This document shows positions 6,115-63,498 of a stretch of 64,000 bases of DNA, piece after piece (position 1 is the stretch's first letter; every line of letters starts with the position of its first letter). Under the pieces are notes generated by a model. It did not search any database. It worked only from the letters and a program-made list of their open reading frames with translations, and had not been told where the DNA came from. Source of the DNA: an uncultured Acidobacteriota bacterium (GTDB taxonomy: Bacteria > Acidobacteriota > UBA6911); NCBI GenBank assembly GCA_963809485.1, contig CAWEJX010000020.1, positions 1,248,001 through 1,312,000 of the forward strand. Reading direction: 5' to 3'. The translations under genes and the position numbers were made by a program.

Positions 6115-6238
6115 CCATCGGAAGCGCCTCATCGGCTTTTGCTCGCCGACCCTCGCCGAACAAATCGGCGTTTGTCAGCGCTTTTATCAGCGTTTCAAAA
6201 TACGGAACTGTCAAACTCTTTGAGTCCTTCGGCGGAGC
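6115..6238. repeat. Partial copy of the IS200/IS605-end MITE family
   Basis: Closely matches 52755-52890 and 7930-8020 (ggaagcgcctcatc...ctgtcaaactctttgagtcc). Confidence 0.75.
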
Positions 6239-6799
6239 TGTTGCGCATCAAAAAAACATTTTCCACGCCTCCCGGCATGCGGCTCAAATCCCTATTACTG
6301 CCGCCTGTCTCGCCCCCGCCTGTTCTTAATGGCTGTTTGCCGGGCGAGTTTGATTGACAATGCCACGGAATTGGGTATAGGAATATTGCAACACGCGCAC
6401 AATAACCCGCTGAATCACTGCCGGCTAAAGATGCTTGGCTGAAGGAGGATTCTCATCGCATCCATAGGACGCGATGGTCCAGTCGGAGATGAGCCAATCC
6501 AGGGCTTTGGGGGCGCCTGCAGCATGATTTTCTCTAGCTCTCGAAGGTATTGGCAAATCCGTCTTATTGGAGTAAATGCAGTAATGGAGCTCAAACAACT
6601 GACTCTCCCAATGGAGGCTGTATGCCGCGTCGAAAAAAATCACACGAAGGAAAAAATCACCTCCCGGATCTATAGAGTTGGCCCCAAAGGAAATTGCGGG
6701 CTCTTTCAGCAAACAATCTCAGCAGGCAGTCGCTGCTTTGCAGGCGGGCGGAGGCGCCGTGCTGGGATCTTACCGGGATCCTTTGCCCGGCGGATGCAG

Positions 6800-7465: not shown

Positions 7466-7803
7466 ATCTCCTCCTGGGAATGCGAGACTCACTTTTTTCC
7501 TTTGATAATCATGTCCGTCCGCCTGGCACAGCGCCAGGTCACTCCCCATGCCTTTGGGATCGCCTCGGGTTTCAGCCGGGAGCCATGGTATTTGGAACAG
7601 CGCACCGCGCAGCGAAACCTGAGATTCAACCGTCGCTATACGATGGAAAGCCGAACTCCCCTAAATCCAGGCCTTAAAAGGCCCGGTTCCATTCAGCTGA
7701 CCGCTCCGCGGCATGGCTCCAATTTCCGGCTTCCATGTAATATCATATATCCTATCGACTGTTAATAAATCAGGTGTCCTCGCAAAAACCGCGACAGAAA
7801 CTA

Positions 7804-8037
7804 GTCAGGTACCTCCGGCAAAGCGGGAGGCTTGAAAGATTTGAACCGCTCAAAGCGGTTGGCGGAGTTATGCCGGTCTTGAACGCTGACTTACGCGGAC
7901 AAAAGCCGATGAGGCGCTTCCGATCCCCGCCGAACAAATCGGCGTTTGTCAGCGCTTTTATCAGCGTTTCTCAGCGTTTCAAAATACGGAGCTGTCAAAC
8001 CCTTTGAGTCTCCCGGCAGAGCCGGCGGTTTACCAAT
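7804..8037 (-). mobile_element. Non-autonomous IS200/IS605-like MITE
   Basis: Hairpin ends cctccggcaaagcgggagg...aaccgctcaaagcggtt and ctgtcaaac...cccggcagagccgg; near copy at 52516-52903; no transposase inside. Confidence 0.7.
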
Positions 8038-8583
8038 GTAATTAGCACTTTTATCAGGCGATAGGAATCGATAACCAAATAAACGCAAATCCAACCTGGC
8101 CCTATTCATGAGCCCTAAAATGGGTTCCAAGCCGGCAACACCTCAATGCAGCGATCCCTGCAAATCGGCCTCAAGACCGGCACGCCGGTTTGCGTGATCA
8201 AGAGAGGCTAAATTGTGGACATTACCAAGGACCATCGCCGCAAGACCATATTGAAACAAAATATACCTGAATTTCCTGATACTGAAGACTAAAAAGCGGA
8301 TCTCTCTTTTTCCGGGGCTAAACCGGATTGATGCCTGTTTATGTTCACGTCGGAATTGTGATATATAAGCAGGTGAGGAACCCTCATGCGGAACTAACAG
8401 CAAACATCCAGACAACGTTATTGAGCGGCCAACAGTTTATGTTTCGGTCGGTACTGCGGGCAAGCGTTGTCTTGTTGCGTTGTGCGCATGAGGATTTTTC
8501 GCCTTCTCAATCCGGATTCCCTGCCAACTCAACAGACATACAATGTGCCGCGCTCTTCCGACCGCAAATTTGGGGAGGGTGGC

Positions 8584-31862: not shown

Positions 31863-31937
31863 CGCCGGTTAATGAGGGGGAACTACTTTGTGGGGACAAA
31901 TCGAAGCTAAGGGGTGTCAAAAAGGGCCTGTGCCTGT

Positions 31938-32120
31938 GGCAAAGCCGGAGGCTTGAAGATCTGAACCGCTCAAAGCGGTCTTACGCATGTCCCCATGGCT
32001 GCTATCTGCCGAGACTTGGGTCCGGGAAAATACGCCGATGGACGCTGACAATCGCGGACAAACACTGATAAAACCAATTTTTTGTCAGCGTGTGTCCGCG
32101 GCTGTCAGCGTCAGTCAGCA
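31938..32120. repeat. Partial IS200/IS605-end MITE plus palindromic repeat
   Basis: ggcaaagccggaggcttgaagatctgaaccgctcaaagcggt matches 7817 and 52530; followed by a gacgctgaca...tgtcagcgtc hairpin. Confidence 0.65.
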
Positions 32121-37208: not shown

Positions 37209-38901
37209 GTGAGAAAAATGAGAAGGATAAACATGTTTCTGGCGTTATGCGGCTTGTCCTGCGGTTTGCTGTCCGCACAGGCGCCGCAGGCCGCGGATCC
37301 GACACAGCCGTCGATTCAAAGCCAATCGTTCAGTTCGATACCTATTTATCGCGTCACCGTGGTAGAGCGGACCATGAAGGCCGTAAACTATCAACACCGA
37401 AGCGGCGCCACAAAGATTGATTTCAGCGGCACCGATCTCCTGCCGATGGCTCGCGGCGAGGCCAAAGTGGAGAGCAAAAAGGGCTACATCGAGATCGAGG
37501 TGGAATTTGACGAAATGCAGCCGGCAACCAAGCATGGCGCTGAATGTCTCACCTATGTCCTATGGGCGATCACCCCGGAAGGCCGGACATCCAACCTGGG
37601 CGAGATCCTCCTCGACGGAACCAAAGGCAAGCTGAACGTGACTACCGAATTGCAGGTCTTCGGCCTGGCTGTCACGGCGGAGCCGTACTTCGCGGTTTCC
37701 ATGCCGAGCAACTTGGTCGTGATGGAAAATGTATTGCGCAATGACACGCAGGGCAAGATCGAGGAGATGGACGCCAAGTACGAATTGCTGGAGAGAGGCC
37801 AGTATGAGCGTTTGGCGAATCCGCTGGCGCTGAAAATGGATTCAAAGATGCCTCTGGAACTTTACCAGGCGCGCAACGCCGTCCAGATCGCGCGCGCCAC
37901 AGGCGCAGACCAGTTTGCCTCCGACACCTTTGCCAAGGCCGAGAACAGATTGGATCAGGCCGAGGCATACCAGGCGCGCAACGCGGGGCGCAAACCAGTA
38001 ACGATGACGGCCCGGGAGGCTGTGCAGATTGCGGAAGACTCCAGGGCGATCGCGGTGAAGCGACAGGAAGAAGAGCGTATTGCGAACGAACGCCTGGCGG
38101 GTGCGGACCGCGAAGCGCTGGCCAAAGCAGAGACCGAGGCCGAGGCGCGTCTGAGGGCGCAAGCTGAAAGCGATCAGAGAATGGAGGCCGACCGAAGGGC
38201 GCACTGCTGAGGCCGAACGGAACGCGGCCCAGTCTGAAACCGCGAGGATCAAACTTGATGCAGATGCGGCGCGTGTTGCCGCTCAGATAGAAGCTGATCG
38301 CGTCAAACGCGAGAACGATACGGCGCGAGACGCGGCTCAAGCGGAAGCCAATCGGGCAGCAAGTGCGGCGGCGCAAGCCGAGGCTGACAGAACGCGGCTG
38401 GCAACTCAAGAAGCCGACCGGCTGCGCCTGAAGGCTGAGGCCGAAAAGGCGGAGCTGCGCACTCAGCTGCTAAGCCAGCTTAATCTGGTTCTTGAAACTC
38501 GCGATACGGCCCGCGGCCTTATCGTTAATATGTCGGATGTTCTTTTCGACACAGCCAAGTACACCCTGCGGCCCGAAGCGCGCGAGAGGCTGGCCAAGGT
38601 GGCCGGTGTTCTCCTGGGACACCCGGGCCTAAAGCTTGAGGTCGAAGGCCATACAGACAGTGTGGGAGGTGAAGTGTACAATCAGCACCTCTCCGAACAA
38701 CGAGCCGGATCGGTGCGTGACTATCTCATCCAGCAGGGGATTTCAGGGATGGACTCGATCCCAGCCAAAGGGTTCGGCAAATCACAGCCTGTAGCCACGA
38801 ACGATACCGCCGCAGGCCGGCAGCTCAATCGGCGCGTGGAACTTATTGTCTCCGGCGATCTCATCGGTACTCAGATCGCTTTGTCAAATAGTTCAAGGTA
38901 A
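37209..38901 (+). CDS. OmpA-family protein with coiled coil, frameshifted near 38205
   Basis: Signal peptide; Ala/Glu coiled coil continues in another frame into VEGHTDSVG...LSEQRA...NRRVEL. Confidence 0.85.
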
Positions 38902-39101
38902 GAAGCGCTGACGCCTATTTTTGTTTGCAGAACATGACTGACAAGAAGGCTAATAGGGTGGGGCACGGCTCGCCGTGCCCCAGAATTCCCCATCATTATT
39001 TTACTTCCGAAAGATCCGACCTATGCCCCGTCTTCCTAAAACCCATACCCCACCCGAAGCGGCTCATGCCACGAAGGATTCTCTTTGGAGCAGGGGCTCG
39101 A

Positions 39102-41343
39102 ATGATCTCGCGATTGCAGAGCGCCCGTGCCTTCGTGGTTGGTCGCCCGCGATCCGCAAGGTTGCGCCGCATCGTGCTCTTTGCGGCCGCTCCCCTGGCG
39201 CTGGTCTTGCTTCTCATCTCGGCTGGGTTGATCCACCATGTCTACTTCAATCGCCGCGGGCTCCCGGACATCGAGCGGTTCATCCGTTTCGAGCCCCCCA
39301 CAACGGGCAGGGTCTACGACTCCCGGGGCAAGGTGCTTATAGAACTGGCAAGGGAGTACCGCCGGGTGGTCTCCTACGACGAGGTGCCCGCTATCCTGCG
39401 CCAAGCCGTCCTGGCGGCTGAGGACAAGAATTTCTTCTCCCACTCCGGCGTAGAATACCGTGCGTTGCCGCGGGTGATCCAGAAGACGGCGGTGCGCTCT
39501 CTGGCCTCGTGGCGGAAGGGTGGCGGGTTCCGGCTGCTGTTTCCCCAGGGCGGCTCAACACTTACGCAGCAGCTCGTCCGTGGCTACTTTCTCCAGGACC
39601 GGACTAGCCTCGAAACCGGCGATGTGCTCTTCCGCGAAAGTCTGATCCCGCGGTTCCTCTCGGCGTGCTTGGGGGCGCCGGCCACAAACAAGCTCCTGCG
39701 TAAGCTGGAGGAGGTGCGGCTGGCGCTCTGGCTCGAAGAGGAGATGCGCCGGCGTTACGGATCGAAGGAGCAAGCCAAGCGCGAGATATTCGCCCGCTCC
39801 GCCAGCTTTCTCTACCTGGGCAACGGCCGCTACGGCTTTGCAGCCGCCTCGGAGTATTACTTCGGCAAGCCCCTGTCGAGCTATACGCCGGAGGATGCGG
39901 GCGAGGCGGCGTTGCTCGCGGGGATTACCAAGTCGCCCAGCGTCTACGCCCCGGTCGCGGGGACCCGCGGCCGCGGCGCCGCCGCAACGAAATCCTGGCC
40001 TTGATGGCGCGCAACGGCTACATCCCCGAAAGCCTGGCCGAGCGCTGCCGGGCCAAGCCGATCCGCGTAGCTGCCCGCAGCCAAGTCAAGACCCATGCCC
40101 CTGCCGCGATCGAGAGCGTCTTGGACGAGCTGAAGCAGCACGGCGTCGGACCGATTCGGGATCGAAGACCTCTTCCAGGGGCGGATCTCGGTCCGCTCGA
40201 CCCTCGACGAGCGAGTTCAGACCATCGTGAACGAAGCCCTGGAAAACGGCCTCGCTCGCTACGAAAAGCGGCACCCCGGGGCAAAGGGATCCATCCAAGG
40301 TTCTGTGGTGGCGCTGCACAACGGGAACGCGGCGATCCTGGCCGAGGCAGGCGGGCGTCACGTCTTTAACGACCGCGCTGCGCGCTACTCCGACTACAAC
40401 CGTGTCACGGGCTCACTGCGGCAGCCGGGCTCGGCATGGAAGCCGCTGGTCTACCTGGCTGCGTTCCGCCAGGGCTTGGACCTCTCTACCACGGTGCCCG
40501 ACGAGCCCATCGAGGTGTCCATGGGCGCCGATCAAGGGGGTGAAGTGGATCTCCAATTACGATAATCAGTTCAAGGGGCCGATCCCGATCCGCCAGGCGC
40601 TGGCTGAGTCCCGCAATGCGGTAGCCGTATGGATCACCCGCGAGATCGGCCTGAACAATGTGATCCAGACGGCCCGGGAAATGGGGATTCGCACCCCCCT
40701 GCAGCCTTATATTACAACGGCGCTAGGAGCCTCGGAGGTGCGGCTGCTGGAGCTGGCGGGCGTCTATCGCGCCATGGCCTCCGGGGTCTTGGCGGAGCCC
40801 CACGTCATCGATCGCGTGACAAACGCCTCGGGCATGGTGCTCTATGAGGCTCCTCCGGCAGGACGGTTGATCGACTCTGCTGAGTTGAGCCTGATCCAGG
40901 AGGGGTTGCGCGGCGTGGTTCGCCTTCCGGAGGGCACCGCCCACAGTCTTGACCGCCGCGACTTCCCGATCCCGGTGATGGGCAAGACCGGGACGACAAG
41001 CGACTTTCGCGACGCGCTTTTCGTCGGATCCACTTACGGGACGCAGGGAATCACGGTGGCGGTCCGGATTGGCTTCGATGACAACCGCACGCTGGGCGAG
41101 AAGGAGACCGGGGGGCGCGCGGCGCTGCCGATCTTTCGCGAGATCATGCTCCGAATCTACCAGGACAAACTGTTGGGACCGGCGCCGCATTTCCCCCGCG
41201 AGATCGAGGAAGGAATCGACGAGTACCTGGCAACGCAGGCCTTGCAGAAAGTAGGGCGCGACACACCGCCGCCGTTGGCCTCGACGACAGCCTCATTAGC
41301 TCCGCCAGTGACAGTCTCCAACACTTCTGAAGCCCGGCGGTGA
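39102..41343 (+). CDS. Class A penicillin-binding protein (transglycosylase/transpeptidase), several frameshifts
   Basis: AAEDKNF, GGSTLTQQ, RKLEE, RQPGSAWK, SRN and KTG; frame breaks near 39960, 40148 and 40540. Confidence 0.85.
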
Positions 41344-50598: not shown

Positions 50599-52464
50599 AT
50601 GCGTTGGAGGCCATTGGAGATGGAACTAAGGGGCGTGGAGCCCAAAAGTAAGCTTGCTGTTTTCAAACCGCGTCCGCCAAAACGCGAAAGGGCCGGGCAG
50701 GCGGACCCTGATGGGCATGGTAGGGACACAAAGCGCAGTCCGGCGGAAGTGTCCGGGCGTTTCGCGAGCGCGTTCATCAATGCTCCCATCGGCATGGCGC
50801 TCATTGACATGGATGGCCGCTGGCTGCAGGTCAACCACGCACTCTGCCGCATAACCGGCCATGCGGAGAGCGAGCTGCAGGCAAAGACCCTGCGGTCTCT
50901 CACGCATCCTGACGACATCGATCTCGATGTGCCGTTGCTGCGACAGTTGCTCGACGCAGAGATTTCCAGCTACCAGGTTGAGAAGCGCTTCCTTCACGCC
51001 TGGGGCCACTTTGTCTGGACAACGGTGACCGTTTCGCTCGTCAGCGATGAGGACGGTCAGGCGCTCTATCTAATCACGCAGTTTCAAGACATTTCAGAGC
51101 GCAAGGAGTTGGCGGGACGCCTCGAATATCTGGTGGATCATGATTTCCTTACCGGTTTGTCCAATCGACGGCACTTCGAGCAGGAGCTTGCCCACGAGGT
51201 TGAGCGCGCGGCGCGCTATGGTTCCCCCGGGACGGTGCTTTTGATCGACGTGGACAATTTCAAGACTGTAAACGATACTTTTGGCCACATGGCGGGTGAT
51301 GATCTGCTCAAAGGAATTGCAGGATTATTGAAGCACCGCATGCGTCATACCGATACCCTTGCCCGCGTCGGTGGAGATGAGTTCGCGGTGCTGCTTCCGC
51401 AGACTAATGCCAGGCAGGCATCGGTTATGGCCGCCGACTTCGCGAAAGCATTGGACAAGCAGACGGCGGTGCTGGCCAATAAGTCCGTCCACATTACGGC
51501 AAGTGTTGGGATCGCCTCGTTTGACGACCTCAGCGATGTGGAGGTGCTGGAGTGTGCCGATGTTGCGATGTATGGAGCCAAGCAGGCAGGCCGGAATCGA
51601 ATTGTCATTTACACGCCGTTCTCGGGAGACCGGAATCAGGGGTCTTCGCGGCAAAGTGAGGCCGATCGGATCCGCCAGGCGGTCGAAGAGGATCAATTCC
51701 TTCTCTATGGCCAGCCTATCCTGGATCTCGCGACGAATAAGGTCAGCCAATATGAGCTCCTGCTGCGGCTTCCGAGGGTTCAAGGCTTCGAGCCTCTGGC
51801 GCCAAACTCATTTCTATATGTCGCGGAACGTTTGGGCTTGATCCTCTCGATTGACAGTTGGGTGATACGCAAAGCGATCGCAATCATCGCATCCTACCAG
51901 CATGCCGGGCGAAGGCTGACGCTCAACGTGAACCTTTCGGGTAAATCGATTGGCGATCCCAAACTTGCCGGGCTTATCGAAGACGCGCTGGTGGAGGGAG
52001 GGATTGATCCCGCATGCCTGATCCTCGAGATTACCGAAACGGCGGCAATCGCAAGTTTGCAGCAGGCGCGTGCCTTTGCCGATCGGATGCACAGCTATGG
52101 CTGCCGGCTCGCGTTGGATAACTTCGGCGCGGGTCTTGCGTCCTTCTATTACCTCAAGAATTTCCCCTTCGACTACCTTAAAATCGACGGTGAGTTCATT
52201 CGTCGCATTCGCATCAATTCGGTGGACCACCTAGTCGTCCAAGCTATTGTGTGCATCGCGCAGGGAATGGGCAAAAAGACCGTTGCCGAATTTGTTGCAG
52301 ATGCGGATGCCGTCTGTATGCTCCGCGACATCGGCGTCGACTACGCGCAGGGATACCATATCGGTTTGCCAGGACCCGTTGCGGACGTTCTCCCTGCTAT
52401 TGATACGAAGCTCTCGTGTCGGCCGCATTCGGACTTGTTGCAGCATTCCTTGATGCGCACCTAA
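50599..52464 (+). CDS. PAS-GGDEF-EAL diguanylate cyclase/phosphodiesterase
   Basis: PAS, GGDEF, YELLLR, LDNFGAG and LKIDGEF. Confidence 0.93.
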   Translation: MRWRPLEMELRGVEPKSKLAVFKPRPPKRERAGQADPDGHGRDTKRSPAEVSGRFASAFINAPIGMALIDMDGRWLQVNHALCRITGHAESELQAKTLRSLTHPDDIDLDVPLLRQLLDAEISSYQVEKRFLHAWGHFVWTTVTVSLVSDEDGQALYLITQFQDISERKELAGRLEYLVDHDFLTGLSNRRHFEQELAHEVERAARYGSPGTVLLIDVDNFKTVNDTFGHMAGDDLLKGIAGLLKHRMRHTDTLARVGGDEFAVLLPQTNARQASVMAADFAKALDKQTAVLANKSVHITASVGIASFDDLSDVEVLECADVAMYGAKQAGRNRIVIYTPFSGDRNQGSSRQSEADRIRQAVEEDQFLLYGQPILDLATNKVSQYELLLRLPRVQGFEPLAPNSFLYVAERLGLILSIDSWVIRKAIAIIASYQHAGRRLTLNVNLSGKSIGDPKLAGLIEDALVEGGIDPACLILEITETAAIASLQQARAFADRMHSYGCRLALDNFGAGLASFYYLKNFPFDYLKIDGEFIRRIRINSVDHLVVQAIVCIAQGMGKKTVAEFVADADAVCMLRDIGVDYAQGYHIGLPGPVADVLPAIDTKLSCRPHSDLLQHSLMRT

Positions 52465-52515
52465 CCAGGAACCGGTTGCCTTTCTGGAATACGGAAAAAT
52501 CAAAAAGCAGCCACG

Positions 52516-52903
52516 AGTCAGGCACCTCCGGCAAAGCCGGAAGCTTGAAAGATTTGAACCGCTCAAAGCGGTTGGAGGAGTCCCACCGGTCTTGAACGCT
52601 GACTTACACAGGCAAAAGCCGATGAGGCGCTTCCAATCCCCACAGGGGCCAGCGCTCCGCGCTGGACAGTTTTCCGGGCATTGTGGCAAACGCCCGGTTT
52701 CTCATATCCTCCATCTCCTTGCCGCACGGCGCTTGCCACAGTGCCCGGAAAACTCCATCGGAAGCGCCTCATCAGCTATTGCTCGCCGACCCTCGCCGAC
52801 CAGATCGGCGTTTGTCAGCGCATTGGTCAGCGTATCTCAGCGTTTCAAAATAGGGAGCTGTCAAACTCTATGAGTCCCCCGGCAGAGCCGGGGATTTACC
52901 AAT
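52516..52903 (-). mobile_element. Non-autonomous IS200/IS605-like MITE with internal nested palindrome
   Basis: Same ends as 7804-8037, with a longer inverted-repeat interior. Confidence 0.7.
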
Positions 52904-52963
52904 AGAATTATACGAATGTTGCATCCATCAGCGGTTCGCGCATGGGCTGTCCCAGCCTGCCTT

Positions 52964-53028
52964 TGAGCAATTTTGACCAAACGTTTGAGCAGTACTGAAC
53001 TGACACACGAGATGCCCCAGGCTATAAA
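52964..53028 (+). promoter_or_regulatory. Tandem-box promoter copy L (sortase locus)
   Basis: TGAGCAATTTTGACCA-N6-TGAGCAGTACTGAACTGACA-N17-TATAAA (equals the consensus). Confidence 0.9.
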
Positions 53029-53209
53029 GGAAGATAAGCCTTGAGCTGCCAGGCGAAATCTGGCCGGAGGCGAGTGTCCGATGGACGAGCAAGGTGTTCG
53101 CCCATGTGAAATGAGATTATGAGCGGGAAAAGCCCTTCGGCTTCTTTGAGGTGGCTGATGTGGTGCAACTGAAATAAATAGTAAAACAATTTTTTAAGAG
53201 GAGTTCAAA

Positions 53210-53941
53210 ATGAATCGATTCAAAGTTGAGGCGGTGATCCTTTGTTTGGCCCTGGTGGCCTTGGCATTTCCAGTCGCGGCAAAGGCCGACGAATGGAACA
53301 AAAAAACCACCGTCACATTCAGCGCGCCGGTCGAGATTCCGGGTGTAGGAGCCCAGGTGTTGCCGGCTGGCACCTATGTCTTTAAGCTGTTGAATTCACA
53401 ATCCAACCGGAACATTGTTCAAATCTTCAACGAACGGCAAGACCATGTATTTTCAACCATTCTTGCGATTCCAAATTTCCGTTTGCAGGCGACCGATAAA
53501 ACCGTCATGACGTTCAGGGAAAGGGCGTCCGGTGAGCCGGAGGCCATCCGAGCATGGTTTTATCCCGGGAACAGATGGGGTCAGGAATTTGTGTACCCAA
53601 AAGCAAGGGCTATCGAAATTGCGAAGCTGACAAATATACCCGTTCTCGCGATGCCTACGGAACTGGCCACGAACCTTTTGGAACCGGTAAAATCGGCGGA
53701 TGAACCGCCCGTAATAGCTTTGATACAGGCGCCGGTCGAGGCCGTAAAACCTACCGGAGAAGTAGTCGCAATGACTGAAGTCGTTGAGCCACCGCCTGTG
53801 GAGACAGCCGCGGTACAGTCAACGGAGCCTTACCAGAACCTGCCCGAAACAGCCAGCCCAATGGCGCTATTGGGCTTGATTGGTTTGTTATCGCTTGCCG
53901 CAGGCGTTGGTCTTTCAGTAATTTCGAAGCGGCGTGTTTGA
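53210..53941 (+). CDS. Secreted protein with LPETA sortase sorting signal
   Basis: Signal peptide (AKA-D); Pro/Glu linker; C-terminal LPETA + hydrophobic helix + KRRV. Confidence 0.85.
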   Translation: MNRFKVEAVILCLALVALAFPVAAKADEWNKKTTVTFSAPVEIPGVGAQVLPAGTYVFKLLNSQSNRNIVQIFNERQDHVFSTILAIPNFRLQATDKTVMTFRERASGEPEAIRAWFYPGNRWGQEFVYPKARAIEIAKLTNIPVLAMPTELATNLLEPVKSADEPPVIALIQAPVEAVKPTGEVVAMTEVVEPPPVETAAVQSTEPYQNLPETASPMALLGLIGLLSLAAGVGLSVISKRRV

Positions 53942-54170
53942 GCAAGCGAGGTTGTGCGTGCCGTCAAGAGGGGCTCATTGGGGACGTTTAGGCAACGGGT
54001 TCCCCCCCCGCGCGGAAAAGGGGGGGCGACCCTTAGCGGGGCTATGATAAGACCCTATGCGTGCCCCATGAGGGCAGGCTAGTATGACCTGCCCTCATGG
54101 CTGGTGGGGTTTGTGGCCACGCGCGCGACTCCGGTGCTATCGCTCAGATTCCAAAACTGGACTGGACTGT

Positions 54171-55199
54171 ATGAGAGAGCCTTCCCATGCCGAAGAATTC
54201 CGTTCCAGGGGCAAATGTTTCCCCACAACCCTGTGTCTGGCCTGTTGTTTTTACTTGATTGTTCTGCCAGGCATGTTCCAGCAGCAGGAATACTCCCAGT
54301 CCCAGAGCGGCGAAGGTGACCCGTACACGATTAGCGTAAGCGTTGGCACGGTGGTCTTGAACGCGACCGTGCGTGATCGCAAAGGCATCCTTGTTTCAGA
54401 TCTCGTCAAAGAAGACTTTCAGGTTTATGAGGACGGAATCCCCCAACAAATCGAATGCTTCAGCCACGAAGATATTCCGGTCACCGTGGGCCTGGTCGTC
54501 GACAACAGCGGAACCATGAGGCCGAAACGCCCTGAGGTGATTGCAGCGGCCCTGGCGTTTGCCCACTCCAGCAACCCTGCGGATCAGATGTTCGTGGTTA
54601 ATTTCAACGAGAATGTATCCTTTAGCCTTCCAGACAACCTGCCGTTCACGGACAAAGCGGCTCAACTCGAGATTGCCCTGTCTCGAATTGCCGCGGACGG
54701 CATGACGGCACTCTACGACGCCGTGGCGGCTGCGCTCGATCACCTGAAGAAGGGCGATCGGGACAAAAAAGTGCTGATTGTTATCAGCGATGGGGAGGAT
54801 AACGCCAGCAAACTCAAATTGGACAGGATTCTGGCTCTGGCAGGGCAGTCGGACGCAATCATTTACACCATAGGAATCTTTGATGAGAACAATCCCGATC
54901 GGAACCTTCGGGCGCTCAAGCGGCTGGCAAATGCTACCGGTGGCGAAGCTTTCTTGCCGGGCTCGGCAAAAAACGTTGTCCCCATCTGTGAGCGAATCGC
55001 CTATGACATTCGCAACCAATACTCCATAACCTATCTGCCCACGAATAAAAAGCAGGATGGCAGCTTTCGGGCTATTCAGGTGACGGCCGGAGCACGGGAT
55101 GGCAGACGCCTGTCCGTCCGCACCCGCGCAGGTTACTACGCACCCTTAAAATCTGAATCCTTGCCGACAAGTGAGCAACCCCATGAAAATGCGAATTAG
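54171..55199 (+). CDS. VWA domain protein (acidobacterial type)
   Basis: VVDNSGT MIDAS-like motif, TALYDAV, ISDGEDN, QYSITY and RAGYYAP; start uncertain. Confidence 0.88.
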   Translation: MREPSHAEEFRSRGKCFPTTLCLACCFYLIVLPGMFQQQEYSQSQSGEGDPYTISVSVGTVVLNATVRDRKGILVSDLVKEDFQVYEDGIPQQIECFSHEDIPVTVGLVVDNSGTMRPKRPEVIAAALAFAHSSNPADQMFVVNFNENVSFSLPDNLPFTDKAAQLEIALSRIAADGMTALYDAVAAALDHLKKGDRDKKVLIVISDGEDNASKLKLDRILALAGQSDAIIYTIGIFDENNPDRNLRALKRLANATGGEAFLPGSAKNVVPICERIAYDIRNQYSITYLPTNKKQDGSFRAIQVTAGARDGRRLSVRTRAGYYAPLKSESLPTSEQPHENAN

Positions 55200-55866
55200 G
55201 TGGATGTCTCTCCCAAGGCGAGATAGTCCATGGCTCCGTTGGAGCCGATACCTTTTCTTTATCATTGGCATTCTTGCGCTGGGCTATGTCGGCTTCGCGC
55301 TGCTCGACGCGCGACTCTATCAGGCGGATCAATCCCGAAGATTTGAGCAGGAGTTGAACGGTTTGAAGTCGAATATCGTCAGCGATGAGCGATTTCACGC
55401 ATCCTCAATTTCTCCAGCGCCTGCGAAAGAAAGCCTCGTGAGAGCTGAGCGCATTGACACAGCAGGCAGCGGTCGAACTGCTTTGGGGCAAATTGAGATA
55501 AGCGCAATAGGCCTCAAAGCAATGATCCTGGAGGGCACAGACGCACGAACATTGCGCCGGGCAGTCGGGCACATCCCCGGCACCGCGCTGCCGGGCCAGC
55601 GAGGGAACGTCGCGATCACGGGACACCGGGACACATTTTTCAGACCGCTGCGCAATATCCGTAAGGACGATGAGATCAGGTTGACGACGCTAAACGGATC
55701 GTACCGATATTGGGTGGACTCTGCCACGGTAGTCGAGCCCGCCAACACGGAAGTACTGGACAATTCCGATGATGCAATTCTGACTCTGGTGACCTGTTAT
55801 CCATTTTATTATGTTGGCCCTGCACCTAAGAGGTTTATTGTCCGCGCACACAGGATTCTGGATTGA
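55183..55866 (+). CDS. Class D-like sortase
   Basis: N-terminal TM anchor, GHRDT (His), LVTCYPF (Cys) and RFIVRA (Arg). Confidence 0.92.
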   Translation: MKMRIRWMSLPRRDSPWLRWSRYLFFIIGILALGYVGFALLDARLYQADQSRRFEQELNGLKSNIVSDERFHASSISPAPAKESLVRAERIDTAGSGRTALGQIEISAIGLKAMILEGTDARTLRRAVGHIPGTALPGQRGNVAITGHRDTFFRPLRNIRKDDEIRLTTLNGSYRYWVDSATVVEPANTEVLDNSDDAILTLVTCYPFYYVGPAPKRFIVRAHRILD

Positions 55867-56123
55867 GGTTTCCTTCGGAGACTCCAGGATAGCCTGTCAC
55901 TCGGTTTCTCTCTGCTAAGCGGCTCGCCGGATGCTGGCAAATTGCATGTTGCTTTCTCCACTTTAAGCATTTCCATGGCCACTGCAGGGCGGGTGATATA
56001 GCGGGCCTGGGACTCCAGAGAGGCGATTGCGGCGGCATCGACCGGCGGCCCGGCATAGACTGAAAATCCCGGGTGTACCCAGGACAACAGATTCTGCATG
56101 AAGGATTCCGTAATTTATGTGGA

Positions 56124-56188
56124 TGAGCAATTTTGCCCACTCCTCTGAGCAGTAATGGACTGAGATGATTATTGGGCTGGGCTATAAA
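56124..56188 (+). promoter_or_regulatory. Tandem-box promoter copy M
   Basis: TGAGCAATTTTGCCCA-N6-TGAGCAGTAATGGACTGAGA-N17-TATAAA. Confidence 0.82.
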
Positions 56189-56230
56189 GATAAAGCGTTG
56201 AGCTGTCGGTCAGGACGTACGAGGTGGCAT

Positions 56231-57055
56231 ATGCGACAACGAATGATATGGGCGGTGTTTTTCTATCTTGGTGTGGCAGCCTGTTTATCGGCCCAGACTG
56301 AACGCTTCATTCCCCCCATTGAGGACATCATTGCCGGCATGGCGCAAGCCCGGGCAGAAAATCAGGTAAGCTTTCGTTCCTACATTGTCACCCGCAACTA
56401 CAATCTGTTTGGGAAAGAAAGAGCGAAAACCAAGTCCCAGGTGATTGCCGAGATATCCTTCGTTCCCCCGGCCACCAAAACGTACACGATACAAAAAATC
56501 AATGGCACCGGCTTCGGGGAAACAATCGTTCGCCGAATGTTAATGAGCGAGGTGGACATTGCACGAAATTACACCTCAACGGACTTCTCGACGGACAATT
56601 ATGACATCCGTTTCATCCTCGAGGAAAATGTAGGGGATCAACGCTGCTATGTGCTCGAGCTGCTTCCCAAACGAAAAGATAAGAATCTACTGCGAGGGAA
56701 AATTTGGGTTGATGCAGTCACCTACCTGCCCCAGCGCATCGAGGGTGCACCCAGCAAGACCCCCTCATGGTGGCTGCGGAGCTTGCGATTCGAGCTTATT
56801 TACGGCGAGGTCGGCGGAATGTGGCTGCAGACGGCCCTGGAAGCCACCGCCACGGTCCGAATCCTCGGCCCCCACACGATGGTTTCGCACGACGTGAAAT
56901 ACCAGCTGGGCGATCAGGTTGTTGCCGTTCACCCTAAAGCTGCCGGATGGGTTGATTCAGTAGGTCCGGCGATAAGACAGCCGCAGATCAACCATGAGCT
57001 CCCTATATTCGCGGACGGGGTAAAGGCCAAGGCTGCATCCGGGCTTTGGCCATAA
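56231..57055 (+). CDS. Periplasmic LolA/RseB-like fold protein
   Basis: Signal peptide; CYVLELLPK...GKIWVDA...RIEG. Confidence 0.75.
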   Translation: MRQRMIWAVFFYLGVAACLSAQTERFIPPIEDIIAGMAQARAENQVSFRSYIVTRNYNLFGKERAKTKSQVIAEISFVPPATKTYTIQKINGTGFGETIVRRMLMSEVDIARNYTSTDFSTDNYDIRFILEENVGDQRCYVLELLPKRKDKNLLRGKIWVDAVTYLPQRIEGAPSKTPSWWLRSLRFELIYGEVGGMWLQTALEATATVRILGPHTMVSHDVKYQLGDQVVAVHPKAAGWVDSVGPAIRQPQINHELPIFADGVKAKAASGLWP

Positions 57056-58146: not shown

Positions 58147-58326
58147 CTACCCTCCGAGGAATTTCTCCAGTTGGCCGATTTTCTTTTGGACCTTCCCGCC
58201 GATCTTTTCGACCTTGCCTTCGGCTTCCAAATCTGGATCGTTCGTCGCTTGACCAACCTTCTCTTTAACTTTGCCTTTCACCTCGTGAAATGTGCCCTTT
58301 GCCTTGTCCTCTGTGCTTTGCTTCAT
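58147..58326 (-). CDS. csbD: CsbD family stress protein
   Basis: MKQSTEDKAKGTFHEVKGKVKEKVGQATNDPDLEAEG...; 59 aa, below the ORF-track cutoff. Confidence 0.88.
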   Translation of the reverse strand: MKQSTEDKAKGTFHEVKGKVKEKVGQATNDPDLEAEGKVEKIGGKVQKKIGQLEKFLGG

Positions 58327-58750: not shown

Positions 58751-60088
58751 TTACCTCACCTCAATAGACGTAATCCTGTCGTTGAATTCCCCCGCCAGGT
58801 TCGACATATCACCGGTGACAGTCCTGCTGGCGCCGCCAAAGCTCTCATGCTCGTGAACAACCACTCGGGCTCTGCCAAAGATTCGGATGGATGAAATCCC
58901 ATCGTTAAAGCGGTCTTGCACTTTCCGCTGGCCATCGCCGGCGCTCATGCAAAAGCTGTCGCCGCGGTAGTCCGCGTCCATGAAGAAACACGCCCCGTTG
59001 CGGGGTACGCGACCGCCGCTCCAGACTTCGTACTGTCCTCGGGATTGCCCGCCATACTGCCCTTCATATTGGCTCCCTCCGGCGACTTGGAAGGAAGTGA
59101 TCCGGTCGCCCCAAGCGCCCAGATTCGGTGTATCCCGGCTGATAGTCTGGCGCGAACCGTTGAAGCTCTCATTGTCGTAGACTGTTACTTGGGCCCTGCC
59201 AAATACCCGGATCGATGAGATGCTGTCGTTGTATCGATCCCCGATATTCCGCACGCTCTCGTTGCTGCTGACGCAGAAATTCTCTCCCCTGTAATTCTCA
59301 TCCCTGTAGAAACATACACCATCACCGGGTTCGTTGCCGCTGCCCAAGCCTCCGTTTTGTCCTCGGGATAGTCCGCCATACTGTCCTCCATATTGGCGCC
59401 CTCCAGTGACCTGTAAGGAAGAGATCCGGTCGCCCCAAGCGCCCAGATTCGGTGTATCCCGGCTGATAGTCTGGCGCGAACCGTTGAAGCTCTCATTGTC
59501 GTAGACTGTTACTTGGGCCTCTCCAAATACCCGGATCGATGAGATGCTGTCGTTGTATCGATCCCCGATATTCCGCACGCTCTCGTTGCTGCTGACGCAG
59601 AAATTCTCTCCCCTGTAATTCTCGTCCCTGTAGAAACACACACCATCGCCGGGTTCGTTGCCGCGGCCCCAGCCCTCGAATTGTTCCCGGGATTGTCCGC
59701 CGTACTGTCCATCAGATTGGCGCCATGAGGTGCCCTGGAAGGAGGTAATCCGGTCGTTCCAGGCGCCCAGTTTCGGCATATTCCGGCTGACAGTCTGGCG
59801 CGAGCCGGTGAAGCTTTCATCATCGTAGACTGTCACTTCGGCCCTTCCAAAGATCCGGATGGATGAGATCCGGTCGTTGTAACGATCTCCGATATTCCGT
59901 AAACTCTCATTGCTGCTGACGCAAAAATTCTCTCCCTTGTAGTTTTCGTCCGTGTAAAAACACACGCCCTCTTGAGGCTGATTGCCTTTGTTCCGGCTTT
60001 GGCTCTGGGCCTCAAGCCGCGGGCTGAGGATTTGAATCAGGCTTAAAGCCATTAGGGTCAAAAAGGTGAATCCAATCGCTCGTTTCAT
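58751..60088 (-). CDS. Secreted protein with four beta/gamma-crystallin domains
   Basis: Signal peptide; repeated CFY.DENY.G...YND.ISSIR.FG...ND.ITS motifs; GGGGAG RBS. Confidence 0.88.
   Translation of the reverse strand: MKRAIGFTFLTLMALSLIQILSPRLEAQSQSRNKGNQPQEGVCFYTDENYKGENFCVSSNESLRNIGDRYNDRISSIRIFGRAEVTVYDDESFTGSRQTVSRNMPKLGAWNDRITSFQGTSWRQSDGQYGGQSREQFEGWGRGNEPGDGVCFYRDENYRGENFCVSSNESVRNIGDRYNDSISSIRVFGEAQVTVYDNESFNGSRQTISRDTPNLGAWGDRISSLQVTGGRQYGGQYGGLSRGQNGGLGSGNEPGDGVCFYRDENYRGENFCVSSNESVRNIGDRYNDSISSIRVFGRAQVTVYDNESFNGSRQTISRDTPNLGAWGDRITSFQVAGGSQYEGQYGGQSRGQYEVWSGGRVPRNGACFFMDADYRGDSFCMSAGDGQRKVQDRFNDGISSIRIFGRARVVVHEHESFGGASRTVTGDMSNLAGEFNDRITSIEVR
59095..59665. repeat. 324-bp near-identical tandem duplication (crystallin domains 2 and 3)
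   Basis: Sequence at 59161 recurs at 59485 with few mismatches. Confidence 0.85.
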
Positions 60089-60183
60089 ATACGTCTCCCC
60101 TCTGCTTTTGCAGATGCAACGATTTCTCTTGGTAAGATTAGTGCGGCAACCCGGATTGTTGTTTAGCCCCCCTGTGTTAACCC

Positions 60184-61642
60184 CAATACTGTTCACTTAA
60201 TGAGTCGGATATGATTCTCAACCACTATCCACTTCGTTCTCGCTCGCTTACGCGGCCGCAGCGGATAATTGCTCATCTTTCGTTTGAGGCCGCGAGGATT
60301 GCTCCGCGATCGGCTAGATACGACGCGCTCTTGCAGGATCTCCATCAATACCGCCTCATGGAATGCTTTCCTGTCCCGAGGGGGGAATTGACGCGAACCG
60401 CGCGATTTTCCTGCGGACCACGCGGACCGCGTGCAGGAATGAAAGTGTATCCGGATCTTCGTTGGCCTTCAACGCCGCCTCGTGCATCAGTCCGCGGATG
60501 GCGAAGTGCGCCATCATCAATCCGTAAAATTCTTGCTGCACCAGATCTGGGGTTTTGCTTCGTAAGACAATCCGGGAGCCGCGCAAATGCGTCTTGAGTT
60601 CGTCCAAGGCCGTTTCGATTTCCCATCGTTCATGATAAAGCGCCGCCAACTCAATCGCCGGGGCGGCCTCGTGATCCAAAATCGTTGTCAGCAGCCGGTA
60701 GATAGGTTCGGCTCCGGGAATCCCCTCCAGCCTATATTCGACAACGCGAACAGTCACTCCATTCTGACCATGCCGCTGATCCTTGGGCGACTCATAAATC
60801 CTGCTCAGGTACGAGCCGTCGGGCAGACGTTTCTCGCACGGAAGGCGCAGATTCTTTTTTACCCTCCAGAGCAGGTCTGCGCCGGTCGAACGTGCCTGAT
60901 TCCACAACGCAAATCCAAAGAAGTTTCGGTCGGCAAGACACAGCATCCCTTTGGCCAAAGAAGACAATACTTGTTTGGCCAGGGTAATCTCTCCCGTGTC
61001 TACTCCTCCCATCCGGGTTCCAAACAACACGTGAGTTCCATTTTCAACCAGGGATACGAAGCGAATCTGGGGAAACGCACTCTTGCCTCGGCTGGCGGAA
61101 GGCCGGCCAAACGACTTTGCATTATCTTTTTCGTCTGCGGTATCCAAAGTGCTGCCATCTATGCTGACCAGACGCCACCTGCGATACCATGCCCCTTGGG
61201 TCGACTCGACAGCAATAGGTTTCACAATCCTGTCGTGCAATCGCTGGAGTGGTTCCCATCCCAGACGTGTACGCGCCTGAGAAATACCGGACTTGCCCGT
61301 CACCTTGACAGTGGCCCCCGGTCCCAGAAGCCACTGGATGCCTTCAAAAAGGCAGCGCAGCACCTCGCGGTAGGAGGACTGCATGTACAAGGCCAATGCG
61401 ATTACATAGTAGACAACCACGTGAGCGGGCAGATCCCTTTGTCTTACGCTGGCTTTGCCCGTACCGCGGAGCACAGCCTGGATTGCAGCGGGCGGAAACG
61501 TCTTTGTCAGTACCCCCAGGCTGATGAAATCGGTTATACGTGTGCCGCTGGGGAGTTCAGCAATAGTTCGTGCCATAAGTGGTCCTCCTGTCAAATTTAT
61601 TGACAGGATACCACAGATTACACTGTTAAGTGAACAGTATTG
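60184..61642 (-). mobile_element. IS4 family insertion sequence
   Basis: Perfect 17-bp terminal IR CAATACTGTTCACTTAA; 10-bp TSD GTGTTAACCC at 60174-60183 and 61643-61652. Confidence 0.95.
60356..61576 (-). CDS. IS4 family transposase
   Basis: IDGS, ADRNF and YHERWEIETALDELK (YREK) DDE motifs. Confidence 0.95.
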   Translation of the reverse strand: MARTIAELPSGTRITDFISLGVLTKTFPPAAIQAVLRGTGKASVRQRDLPAHVVVYYVIALALYMQSSYREVLRCLFEGIQWLLGPGATVKVTGKSGISQARTRLGWEPLQRLHDRIVKPIAVESTQGAWYRRWRLVSIDGSTLDTADEKDNAKSFGRPSASRGKSAFPQIRFVSLVENGTHVLFGTRMGGVDTGEITLAKQVLSSLAKGMLCLADRNFFGFALWNQARSTGADLLWRVKKNLRLPCEKRLPDGSYLSRIYESPKDQRHGQNGVTVRVVEYRLEGIPGAEPIYRLLTTILDHEAAPAIELAALYHERWEIETALDELKTHLRGSRIVLRSKTPDLVQQEFYGLMMAHFAIRGLMHEAALKANEDPDTLSFLHAVRVVRRKIARFASIPPSGQESIP

Positions 61643-62229: not shown

Positions 62230-62601
62230 ATGGATGGGATACATAGCCAATCCATGGAAACCTTACAACGGATTCAGCTCGAAAAACAGCGGGATGCTTT
62301 GCTGGAACAATTGCACGGAATTGGCAACCTCATGCGCGGAACCCTGGTTCAGACGAAGGTCCGCTGCGGACGCAAAGGTTGTGTCTGCGAAACTGGCGAG
62401 AAGCATGTGAAGGTGCATTTGTCTCTGAATCTCCACGGGCGCACCCGAGGCTGTTATGTGGGAGAGCGGGAAGAAGCAGTTGCTGCCCTGATCCGCGAAT
62501 ATCAGCGTGCGTGGCACCTGATCGAACAGTTGACGGAAGTGAACCTGGAACTCATCCGCGGGAATCATCCGGGCGGACGACGGAGCAAGAAACGGAGATG
62601 A
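62230..62601 (+). CDS. DUF6788-like IS accessory protein
   Basis: MRGTL...RCGRKGCVC...H zinc-knuckle motif; ATGA overlap with the transposase. Confidence 0.75.
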   Translation: MDGIHSQSMETLQRIQLEKQRDALLEQLHGIGNLMRGTLVQTKVRCGRKGCVCETGEKHVKVHLSLNLHGRTRGCYVGEREEAVAALIREYQRAWHLIEQLTEVNLELIRGNHPGGRRSKKRR

Positions 62602-63155
62602 AAAACCAACGAATCCTCCCTTATGTGGTTGAAGTGATGGATAAGCCGGAGGGGATCACGGCTTGGGCGGGACTGCCATCGGTGCTGGATGCCATAAGAG
62701 CCTTCGGTCTGGACGAGGTGGTTCAGCAACAGATTCGAGTGCGCAGGAGAAATCGGGGCTACCGCGAATCAAAGAAAGTCGAGGCGCTTGTTCTGCTTAT
62801 GGCTGCGGGCGGCGAATGCGTCGACGATATCCAGATGCTGAAAGCCGATGCGGGATTATGCCGGCTGGTGGGGGATTTTCCGAGTGCGGATGCGCTCCTG
62901 ACGTTTTTGTACGCTTTTCACGATGAGGCGCTGATCGAGAAAGCTCGGTCGCAATTGACGGGAGATCGAGTGGCCTTTATTCCTGAAGAGAACAGAGCGC
63001 TGCAGGGATTGGCGGAAGTCAACAAAGCCCTGGTGCATCGGGTGGCGGCGCAGGGGAGCTGCAGGCGGGCGACCCTGGATCATGATGCGACCATTCAGGA
63101 AAGCCACAAGCGCGAAGCCCAGCCGCACTACAAAGGAGGACGCGGGTACCAGCCA
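62598..63155 (+). pseudogene. Truncated IS1380 family transposase
   Basis: TAWAGL, GGECVDD, TLDHDAT and YKGGRGYQP, then an abrupt end. Confidence 0.8.
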
Positions 63156-63159
63156 GAGA

Positions 63160-63498
63160 CCGCTTCAGTTGTCTGCCAATGGGTATGCTGCGGCGTTCGC
63201 AAATGAGTTTATCATGGGCTTACCCACCGGCTTCACAGGCGTGTTGGACGTCAGCGCCGCAACGCCCTTTGCAGCCCTCACGTTGCGCTCACTCGTTAAC
63301 GAGCGCGATGATTTTATGATGACCACATTCCCGATTGCCAGCGCTGATAAAGATGCTCCATCGCCGATTGTATTCCCGCAGATCGTTGATGGAGGCGGCT
63401 ATGTCACGGAATTTATCATGATTGGTGCAGGTGAAGCATCGAGCATGGAATTCGGTTTTTATGATGAAATCGGCGAACCAATTGATCTTGGCGACTAG
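63160..63498 (+). pseudogene. C-terminal fragment of an acidobacterial secreted-protein domain
   Basis: ALTLRSLVNERDDF..TTFP...IVFPQIVDGGGY.T.FI; no start or signal peptide. Confidence 0.55.

Follow-up and report, generated by a model that had tools for sequence, protein, structure and literature searches.

Within a 64-kb window (the whole stretch of DNA analysed, 64,000 nucleotides from an uncultured, soil-type acidobacterium), we find a sortase module at positions 52964–55866. Three genes on one strand, 3' of a repeated upstream motif, encode a small exported substrate that carries a C-terminal sorting signal, a secreted VWA protein and a membrane-anchored, class D-like sortase. The module is a real, conserved and, as far as our literature search shows, undescribed variant of diderm sortase systems. 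For its mechanism, we infer a one-enzyme, one-substrate periplasmic system, typical of Acidobacteriota, in which the substrate would be attached to m-diaminopimelate (m-DAP) of peptidoglycan with the VWA protein as its partner. The reading is drawn by analogy with characterised enzymes, and we give it a probability of about 0.5. Sortases are textbook Gram-positive enzymes, and to our knowledge the covalent fixing of proteins in the envelope by sortases has barely been studied outside Gram-positive bacteria.

Components and conservation of the gene set

The substrate gene (53210–53941, + strand) encodes a protein of 243 residues, defined by its sorting signal, its homologs and an AlphaFold model. 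A signal-peptide-like helix at the N-terminus (residues ~1–26) is followed by a beta-rich domain (~27–195), a short flexible linker and then the tag, helix and tail. The C-terminus, NLPETASPMALLGLIGLLSLAAGVGLSVISKRRV, contains an LPxTA motif, a hydrophobic stretch (residues 217–239) and the basic tail KRRV, and thus has, as read from its letters, the layout of an LPXTG-type signal (motif, hydrophobic stretch, basic C-terminal tail). Specifically, LPETAS corresponds to residues 211–216 and nucleotides 53840–53857, the membrane helix to 53858–53926, KRRV to 53927–53938 and the stop codon to 53939–53941 (all + strand), in agreement with the first-pass annotation, which had placed LPETA, a membrane helix and KRRV at 53840–53941. 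No other open reading frame (ORF) in the window has a sorting signal, and this one lies upstream of the only sortase found there.

The sortase gene (55183–55866, + strand) encodes 227 residues, and its N-terminus forms a membrane helix. The ORF is open from GTG 55171, but ATG 55183 is the likely start because homologs cover only 97% of the ORF read from the GTG. The protein scores 111.1 bits with the Pfam Sortase model (PF04203; cut-off 26.6) and 88.2 with TIGR01076 (cut-off 39.35). The His/Cys/Arg triad is intact, as had been claimed earlier: His148, Cys205 (in a TxC motif) and Arg217, numbered on the 227-residue protein, align to solved sortases and are retained in 120, 119 and 120 of 120 sortase homologs, respectively. 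Their codons are at 55624–55626, 55795–55797 and 55831–55833 (+ strand).

The gene between the two (54171–55199, + strand) encodes a secreted VWA protein of 342 residues; its ORF is open from 54084, and homologs in related loci place the start at 54171 (MREPSH...). The protein is a clear member of TIGR03436 (215.4 bits, cut-off 81.25) and matches Pfam VWA_2 at 46.5 bits. Its N-terminus has a signal-like helix, and no C-terminal sorting signal was found in its sequence. The residues of the metal ion-dependent adhesion site (MIDAS) are D111, S113, T115, T179 and D207; across 52 VWA sequences, D111, S113 and D207 never vary, and position 115 (S/T) and T179 show almost no variation. The structural model has a predicted local distance difference test score (pLDDT) of 83.8, and its top fold matches in the PDB are VWA proteins. 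The match to inter-alpha-inhibitor heavy chain 1 extends over 298 columns (E 6e-12), compared with ~190 columns for isolated VWA domains. Our literature search found no paper on TIGR03436, and the comparison adds no function. The VWA gene overlaps the sortase gene, as first noted, since either sortase start (55171 or 55183) precedes the VWA stop at 55199; from ATG 55183 the overlap is 17 nt.

To survey the neighbourhood, we collected 452 related loci in species-representative genomes; the locus counts given here are for the best 80 of the 452. Substrate, VWA and sortase genes occur in that order on one strand in 66/80 loci; counted singly, the sortase gene is found in 71 loci and the VWA gene in 72. 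Four loci have the substrate and VWA genes only (plus two cut by a contig end), three the substrate and sortase genes only (plus two on short contigs), and two the substrate gene with neither (plus one cut). Among the 66 ordered loci, the VWA gene is fragmented or reduced in six (L005, L008, L022, L028, L036 and L054) and the sortase gene is in two pieces in two (L045 and L066). Both genes are whole in 49 loci; with start codons picked by a heuristic, 41 of these have a sortase gene that begins before the VWA gene has ended. The overlap is 4 nt in 30 of them, and the 17-nt overlap of the window recurs in 10 of the 49. A tag of the form [LMV]PxT[AGS] is present in 76/80 loci, mostly as LPxTAS (59/80). 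The first-pass annotation had called this a complete sortase system; all of its parts are in place in the window, and the set is conserved in order. Because it is complete and conserved, we conclude from the sequences that the system is very likely functional rather than a stray gene.

Two further features touch the surveyed loci. A gene of ~590 residues, malic-enzyme-like by eye, separates the substrate gene from the VWA or sortase gene in L035, L038, L048, L059, L070 and L075, which are mostly labelled Bryobacterales. A small ORF just after the sortase of L053 (8318–8695, + strand) ends in ...LPVTAS, a hydrophobic stretch and KNKS, and may be a second substrate; it is the sole such case in the 80 loci.

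The tag is equally well kept in the substrate family at large. Conservation of LPxTA had been chosen beforehand as one test on which the assignment could fail. A search for close homologs gave at least 8000 at E ≤ 1e-3, and the best 120 (74–100% identical) were used; an LPxT.. tail is found in 112 of these, mostly as LP[KQE]TAS[PL], and of the remaining eight, seven show MPx[TS]AS and the last has an extended tail. When representatives of all 50%-identity clusters were searched exhaustively, 3978 clusters matched at E ≤ 1e-3, of which 2445 also passed 1e-10 and 556 passed 1e-30. The tag is present in 108 of the 150 best representatives, as LPxTAS in 71, and many of the 42 tag-less ones look truncated or frameshifted. 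Together with the 76/80 loci, these counts show the motif to be retained, and the assignment is not refuted on this point.

The host is a diderm, as the first-pass annotation had supposed. Acidobacteriota is a diderm phylum, and the lineage is given both by the acidobacterial VWA family TIGR03436 and by the labels of 75/80 loci, which comprise Terriglobia, Bryobacterales, Acidobacteriaceae, Vicinamibacterales, Blastocatellia, Pyrinomonadaceae, Ca. Angelobacter and Ca. Acidiferrales, the last two verified against the taxonomy. The other labels, in five loci (L016, L019, L031, L034 and L043), are probable binning errors; we take them as such because L034 equals the Bryobacteraceae locus L033 in identity, E-value and sortase score. 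The OmpA- and LolA-like genes that had been pointed out nearby are also present, with an OmpA match of 83.1 bits at 38530–38901 and a LolA_like match of 33.8 bits at 56165–57055. Three of the neighbours are not conserved with the module: among the 80 loci, the LolA-like gene accompanies it in three, a diguanylate cyclase in two and dodecin in one.

The structure of the substrate was predicted from a 90-sequence alignment with pLDDT 89.4 and a predicted template-modelling score of 0.74. The model contains a beta-rich domain (~30–195), a short low-confidence stretch and a membrane helix. A Pro/Ala/Glu region that looks like a linker is conserved and packs on the beta-rich domain in the model. 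A Foldseek search of the model against the PDB returned no match at E ≤ 1e-3 (best E 0.17, template-modelling score 0.15), a profile of the diverse family returned none against PDB sequences at E ≤ 1, and an ESM Atlas search returned only unnamed Acidobacteriota clusters. Pfam and NCBIfam matches in the substrate are confined to the tail; among 90 diverse relatives, Gram_pos_anchor matches at E ≤ 0.1 in 35. Forty-five of the 90 also have sub-threshold matches to DUF2911 (PF11138) at E ≤ 0.1 (best E 5.9e-4), in the ...PG..LPAGTY.F... region, and long relatives score 17.9–25.7 bits against a cut-off of 27 (three with a listed score, five scanned). The window substrate has no DUF2911 match at E ≤ 0.1 and is not assigned to that family; we describe it as weakly DUF2911-like by sequence.

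The core domain also exists as a tandem duplication that retains LPxTAS (P0391 and P0392). Two apparent fusions of substrate and VWA protein (P0394 and P0403) were rejected as true fusions: they look like frameshift read-through, and the VWA part retains its own signal peptide.

Proposed mechanism and alternatives

Gene content, conservation, tag, catalytic residues and topology signals are direct observations. From the topology signals, each of the three proteins would sit in the periplasm, either on the outer face of the inner membrane or beyond it. In the mechanism we propose, Sec would export the small protein, whose C-terminal helix and KRRV tail would then keep it in the inner membrane beside the sortase, itself anchored through an N-terminal helix. 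The sortase would cut LPET|AS between Thr214 and Ala215, forming a thioacyl intermediate on Cys205, and would pass the new C-terminus to an amino group, by analogy most likely that of the m-DAP side chain of lipid II or peptidoglycan. The product would be a beta-domain protein bound to peptidoglycan. Lipid II-mediated attachment to periplasmic peptidoglycan is the simplest reading because m-DAP is used by the nearest characterised enzymes and is usual in Gram-negative walls. The co-translated, secreted VWA protein would probably bind the anchored protein through its metal site, giving a wall-tethered VWA module, identical in kind to the product of the marine class GN system but built from two proteins. 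The operon would be read from behind a regulatory motif that it has in common with other envelope genes.

The sortase appears dedicated to one substrate, because the window contains one sorting-signal ORF and the 80 loci add one plausible candidate among only two further matches to the sorting-signal pattern.

In databases the sortase is named "class D sortase", and its best solved relatives are 4d70 and 2ln7, which we take to be class D sortases of Clostridium and Bacillus, although the search result does not so name them. Its best family model is NF058671 (class D, LPxTATN-specific; 142.9, cut-off 140); the class E model gives 83.1 (cut-off 160). An LPxTA-type signal, LPETA, lies beside the enzyme in the window.

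Several observations weigh against the reading of a class D-like sortase that anchors this substrate with the help of the VWA protein. First, only 8 of 12 relatives reach 140 with NF058671, the other four scoring 133.4–139.1; that model is named for LPxTATN, whereas the tag here is LPxTAS; and the general class D model NF033746 gives 125.3, below its cut-off of 165. Second, the tail itself falls short of Pfam Gram_pos_anchor (PF00746; 17.5, cut-off 20) and of the LPxTATN signal model NF058670 (20.7, cut-off 32). Third, the core domain also occurs without a sorting signal, fused to YfdX (P0396–P0400 and P0331) or to a DUF5818-type C-terminal region (P0404–P0451), with FVYPE in place of FVYPK. 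Fourth, nine of the 80 loci lack a sortase; three of these are cut by a contig end within 1 kb, but in L026, L038, L043, L044, L046 and L080 there is none nearby despite at least 2.6 kb of downstream sequence. Fifth, the VWA gene is missing beside the sortase in L033, L034, L035, L051 and L059, which means that the system does not strictly depend on the VWA protein. Finally, cleavage, acceptor, VWA binding and regulation are inferred steps, the first two by analogy.

Four of the loci without a sortase (L038, L043, L044 and L046) have the substrate and VWA genes and none within ~4–5 kb downstream; there the sortase may lie elsewhere or have been lost.

All 12 relatives are likewise below the cut-off of the general class D model (122.7–135.4). 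Because the narrow model is straddled and the general one is missed by all, the sortase is best described, on sequence comparison, as class D-like and as a distinct lineage adjoining class D.

The scores of the tail below the cut-offs of LPXTG-type models would also be compatible with a tag that is read by an exosortase (PEP-CTERM-type) or a rhombosortase, the neighbouring sortase having other targets, and Acidobacteriota are rich in PEP-CTERM proteins. We regard this as very improbable. An NCBIfam scan at E ≤ 0.01 gives only the LPxTATN signal model for the tail, the motif is [LM]PxT[AG]S and contains no PEP, the sortase follows on the same strand in 71/80 loci, and almost no other candidate substrate lies nearby.

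The fate of the thioacyl intermediate is the next point to weigh. In vitro, a sortase that is offered no nucleophile hydrolyses its substrate, and the core domain exists in soluble, anchor-less architectures. The enzyme could thus act mainly as a processing protease that uses water as acceptor and releases a soluble periplasmic or secreted protein working with the VWA protein. We give this a small chance, since a signal-less version would reach the same end without the enzyme, and conservation of the tripartite signal and the transpeptidase triad across a large family argues for transfer rather than release.

If transfer is the outcome, the acceptor could still be other than peptidoglycan, for example a surface glycan, an amine-bearing lipid such as phosphatidylethanolamine, or a lysine in either the VWA protein or an outer-membrane protein, giving a protein–protein or protein–lipid conjugate. 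According to the available text of the first functional Shewanella study, from September 2026, the sortase acceptor in outer-membrane bacteria is an open question, even for Shewanella (PMC13712847). The VWA gene is translationally coupled to the sortase gene and kept in 72/80 loci, and the predicted complex of VWA protein and substrate has a weak score above that of the best of its three controls (0.38 and 0.00). On the other hand, the nearest characterised relatives use m-DAP of peptidoglycan (m-Dpm in the accessible part of PMC3297441), five loci have substrate and sortase without a VWA gene, and no acceptor residue has been identified; we judge a different acceptor unlikely.

A lysine of the substrate itself was considered as acceptor as well. 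The substrate has a conserved ...EFVYPK... stretch, which we take to resemble the YPKN pilin motif, sortase pili typically carry VWA adhesins at the tip, and the locus has one abundant, dedicated substrate, first in the operon. This would suit a covalent polymer built like a Gram-positive pilus, each substrate being linked head to tail to the next via a lysine and the VWA protein acting as adhesive partner. However, only 71 of 90 diverse members retain Lys131 of FVYPK, R, E, H and G also occurring at that position, and no lysine of the mature substrate does better; the signal-less relatives have FVYPE. The sortase scores 84.8 with the class C model (cut-off 160), and no DP[FWY] lid motif is seen in its sequence. 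The VWA protein is without a sorting signal, and the locus encodes no route across the outer membrane. We rejected FVYPK as a pilin motif because of its incomplete conservation, and the polymerising system that the first-pass annotation had allowed for is disfavoured; we consider a polymer improbable.

Returning to anchoring on peptidoglycan, the VWA protein is conserved and translationally coupled and its metal site is intact, which suggests that it binds the anchored protein. Consistent with this, prediction of the VWA–substrate complex gives a score of 0.38 (runs 0.46, 0.38 and 0.35), against 0.00 for the best of three controls; at least 52% of contacts agree between runs, and partner pLDDT is at least 80. 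This amounts to weak support: 58 of 80 solved complexes pass the mark, as do 2 of 110 mismatched pairs, but passes at 0.60 or below comprise only seven of those 80 and both mismatches. Against the binding, a weak score is, according to the tool, more often wrong than right unless the guess is likely beforehand.

A wider proposal, which we put forward tentatively and at clearly less than even odds, is that the sortase covalently installs an abundant small protein of unseen fold on periplasmic peptidoglycan, where with the VWA protein it would form a wall-bound scaffold or a tether to the outer membrane, switched on with an envelope regulon. If so, diderms would have a third, independent way of linking protein covalently to peptidoglycan, beside the L,D-transpeptidase attachment of Braun's lipoprotein and that of beta-barrel proteins.

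Regulation and genomic surroundings

A tandem motif, TGAGC-N5-TGAMC twice, 22 nt apart, lies upstream of the substrate gene (52964–53005, + strand) and is a putative activator binding site. Directly 3' of it is a promoter-like CTGACA-N17-TATAAA (53000–53028, + strand), a candidate −35/−10 pair; the consensus promoter scan requires T at the last −10 position and does not list it. The first-pass annotation had the locus start at the consensus copy of a promoter. The copy at 52964–53005 (+ strand) indeed equals the 42-nt pattern with no mismatches, an agreement that is partly circular since the pattern was derived from the same copies; the promoter role is putative. In the window, the 42-nt pattern has five matches at up to three mismatches, compared with none in 100 shuffles, and the 15-nt half-site has 16, compared with 0.26 expected.

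Copies of the motif number 9–12 and lie at ~26754, 33621, 35945, 36791, 41530, 42759, 45259, 48175, 50365, 52964, 56124 and 57257; every copy is on the + strand (26.7–57.3 kb), and TATAA follows each. The TATAA end is common to nine copies of repeat family D2. Among the genes after other copies are those for a PG_binding_1 protein, the DUF4398/OmpA pair, penicillin-binding-protein-like pieces, an M48 protease, BrkB, a GGDEF-EAL protein, the LolA-like protein and dodecin. Sixteen of 76 related loci have the tandem motif ahead of the substrate gene, at a distance of 170–271 nt, compared with a frequency of 0.017 per 450 nt elsewhere in these loci. Lying mostly before envelope-type genes, the copies in the window look as if they serve a single regulon as operator and promoter. 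This would fit joint control of envelope or stress genes and would parallel the Shewanella sortase cluster, which is under PghKR control (PMC13712847, in the portion available). Induction by stress, proposed in the first-pass annotation, is drawn entirely from the shared motif, the envelope-type genes that carry it and the Shewanella analogy.

As a repeat, the element measures 42–75 nt (26743–57320, + strand) and consists of four TGAnC-like words about one helical turn apart, then TATAA. Just upstream of the sortase locus are intergenic repeats, 87–89% alike (families D5, D6, D10 and D11), at 52508–52641 and 52786–52910, with others at 7795–8044, 6136–6260 and 31930–31979. They hold the small hairpin AACCGCTCAAAGCGGT and may be a REP- or MITE-like element.

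A hairpin with C8 and G7 arms (54000–54030, + strand) lies in the 229 nt that separate the substrate gene from the VWA gene. It was rejected as a candidate: the fold of 53940–54090 is not significant (z −1.58, with 11 of 200 shuffles as good), and no T-run follows the hairpin. An Rfam scan of 52400–56200 gave only two far sub-threshold matches to microRNA models, and a scan for sigma-70 promoters and terminators gave a count no higher than chance.

Several features lie further from the module. Penicillin-binding-protein-like transglycosylase and transpeptidase domains are in separate ORFs (38925–40004 and 40402–41343, + strand), as are a DUF4398 part and an OmpA part (37209–38210 and 38530–38901, + strand); these ORFs may be split, frameshifted or miscalled. 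A secreted protein of 481 residues (58751–60196, − strand) has four 324-nt beta/gamma-crystallin-type repeats (Crystall_3, 129.7 bits), and its gene is adjoined by a CsbD-like gene (58147–58326, − strand). Toward the window end are an IS4-family transposase gene (60356–61594, − strand) and a fragment of a second DDE transposase gene (62379–63206, + strand).

Relation to known sortase systems

Sortase genes in Acidobacteria have been counted earlier (available text of PMC3174227), and our literature search found no description of the acidobacterial module, its substrate family or its VWA partner. The module adds a second, independent diderm sortase system, large and well conserved, in one of the most abundant soil phyla. 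Its small single substrate, its short, well-defined tag and nearest relatives that use m-DAP make the question of the acceptor directly testable. It also offers a lead to function for three large unknowns, i.e. the acidobacterial VWA expansion TIGR03436, the DUF2911-like domain family and the conserved motif of the envelope regulon.

The marine class GN system is represented by pdsO-SO2195-SO2196 of Shewanella oneidensis, with a TIGR03784 sortase and a TIGR03788 target (PMC13712847, as far as its text is available). Judged from that text, the two systems have in common a diderm host, one sortase beside one dedicated target that bears a motif of the LPxT[AS] type along with a membrane helix at its C-terminus, a VWA module resembling inter-alpha-inhibitor, and a likely link to an envelope regulon. 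They differ in that the target there carries the VWA domain itself, whereas the substrate here belongs to another family without a VWA match and the VWA module is secreted as a protein of its own that carries no tag. The operon here contains neither an OmpA-like pdsO gene nor a two-component system; none of the genes between 52964 and 55866 is OmpA-like, and the OmpA-domain gene is 15 kb away (38530–38901). The window sortase scores 91.2 with TIGR03784, below the cut-off of 158.25. None of its 12 relatives is at the cut-off either (91.4–111.5 for 11 of them, with L062 not listed at E ≤ 1e-25). The lineages differ as well: the available part of PMC13712847 names Proteobacteria, Desulfobulbia and Nitrospiria and does not list Acidobacteriota. 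The split architecture relative to class GN, proposed in the first-pass annotation, is reasonable, with the VWA gene between substrate and sortase in 66/80 loci and a VWA model that resembles inter-alpha-inhibitor.

The class D enzymes of Bacillota, such as SrtC of Bacillus anthracis with BasH and BasI and the LPXTA enzymes of Bacillus cellulosilyticus, are related to the module by the best family models, the best solved relatives and the LPxTA motif. Class D enzymes are often encoded beside their substrate (accessible text of PMC3617157). In the part of PMC3297441 available, a sortase specific for LPNTA cuts the T–A bond and has m-Dpm cross-bridges as its acceptor, and BasH anchoring also takes place in a peptidoglycan compartment bounded by two membranes. 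The module differs from them in that the window sortase and its 12 relatives miss the general class D cut-off, the consensus is LPxTAS[PL] rather than the LPxTATN of the model, the host is a non-sporulating diderm and a VWA partner is conserved.

With Gram-positive sortase pili, the module shares the joint encoding of a sortase, a small beta-rich substrate and a VWA protein, as well as the YPK stretch in the substrate. The differences are the variable lysine, the class C score below its cut-off, the VWA protein without a sorting signal and the outer membrane.

Thus, the module resembles class GN in its workings, namely a dedicated sortase, one target, a VWA protein and a diderm host, and class D in its motif and likely acceptor, while its substrate family is neither the class GN nor the class D target family.

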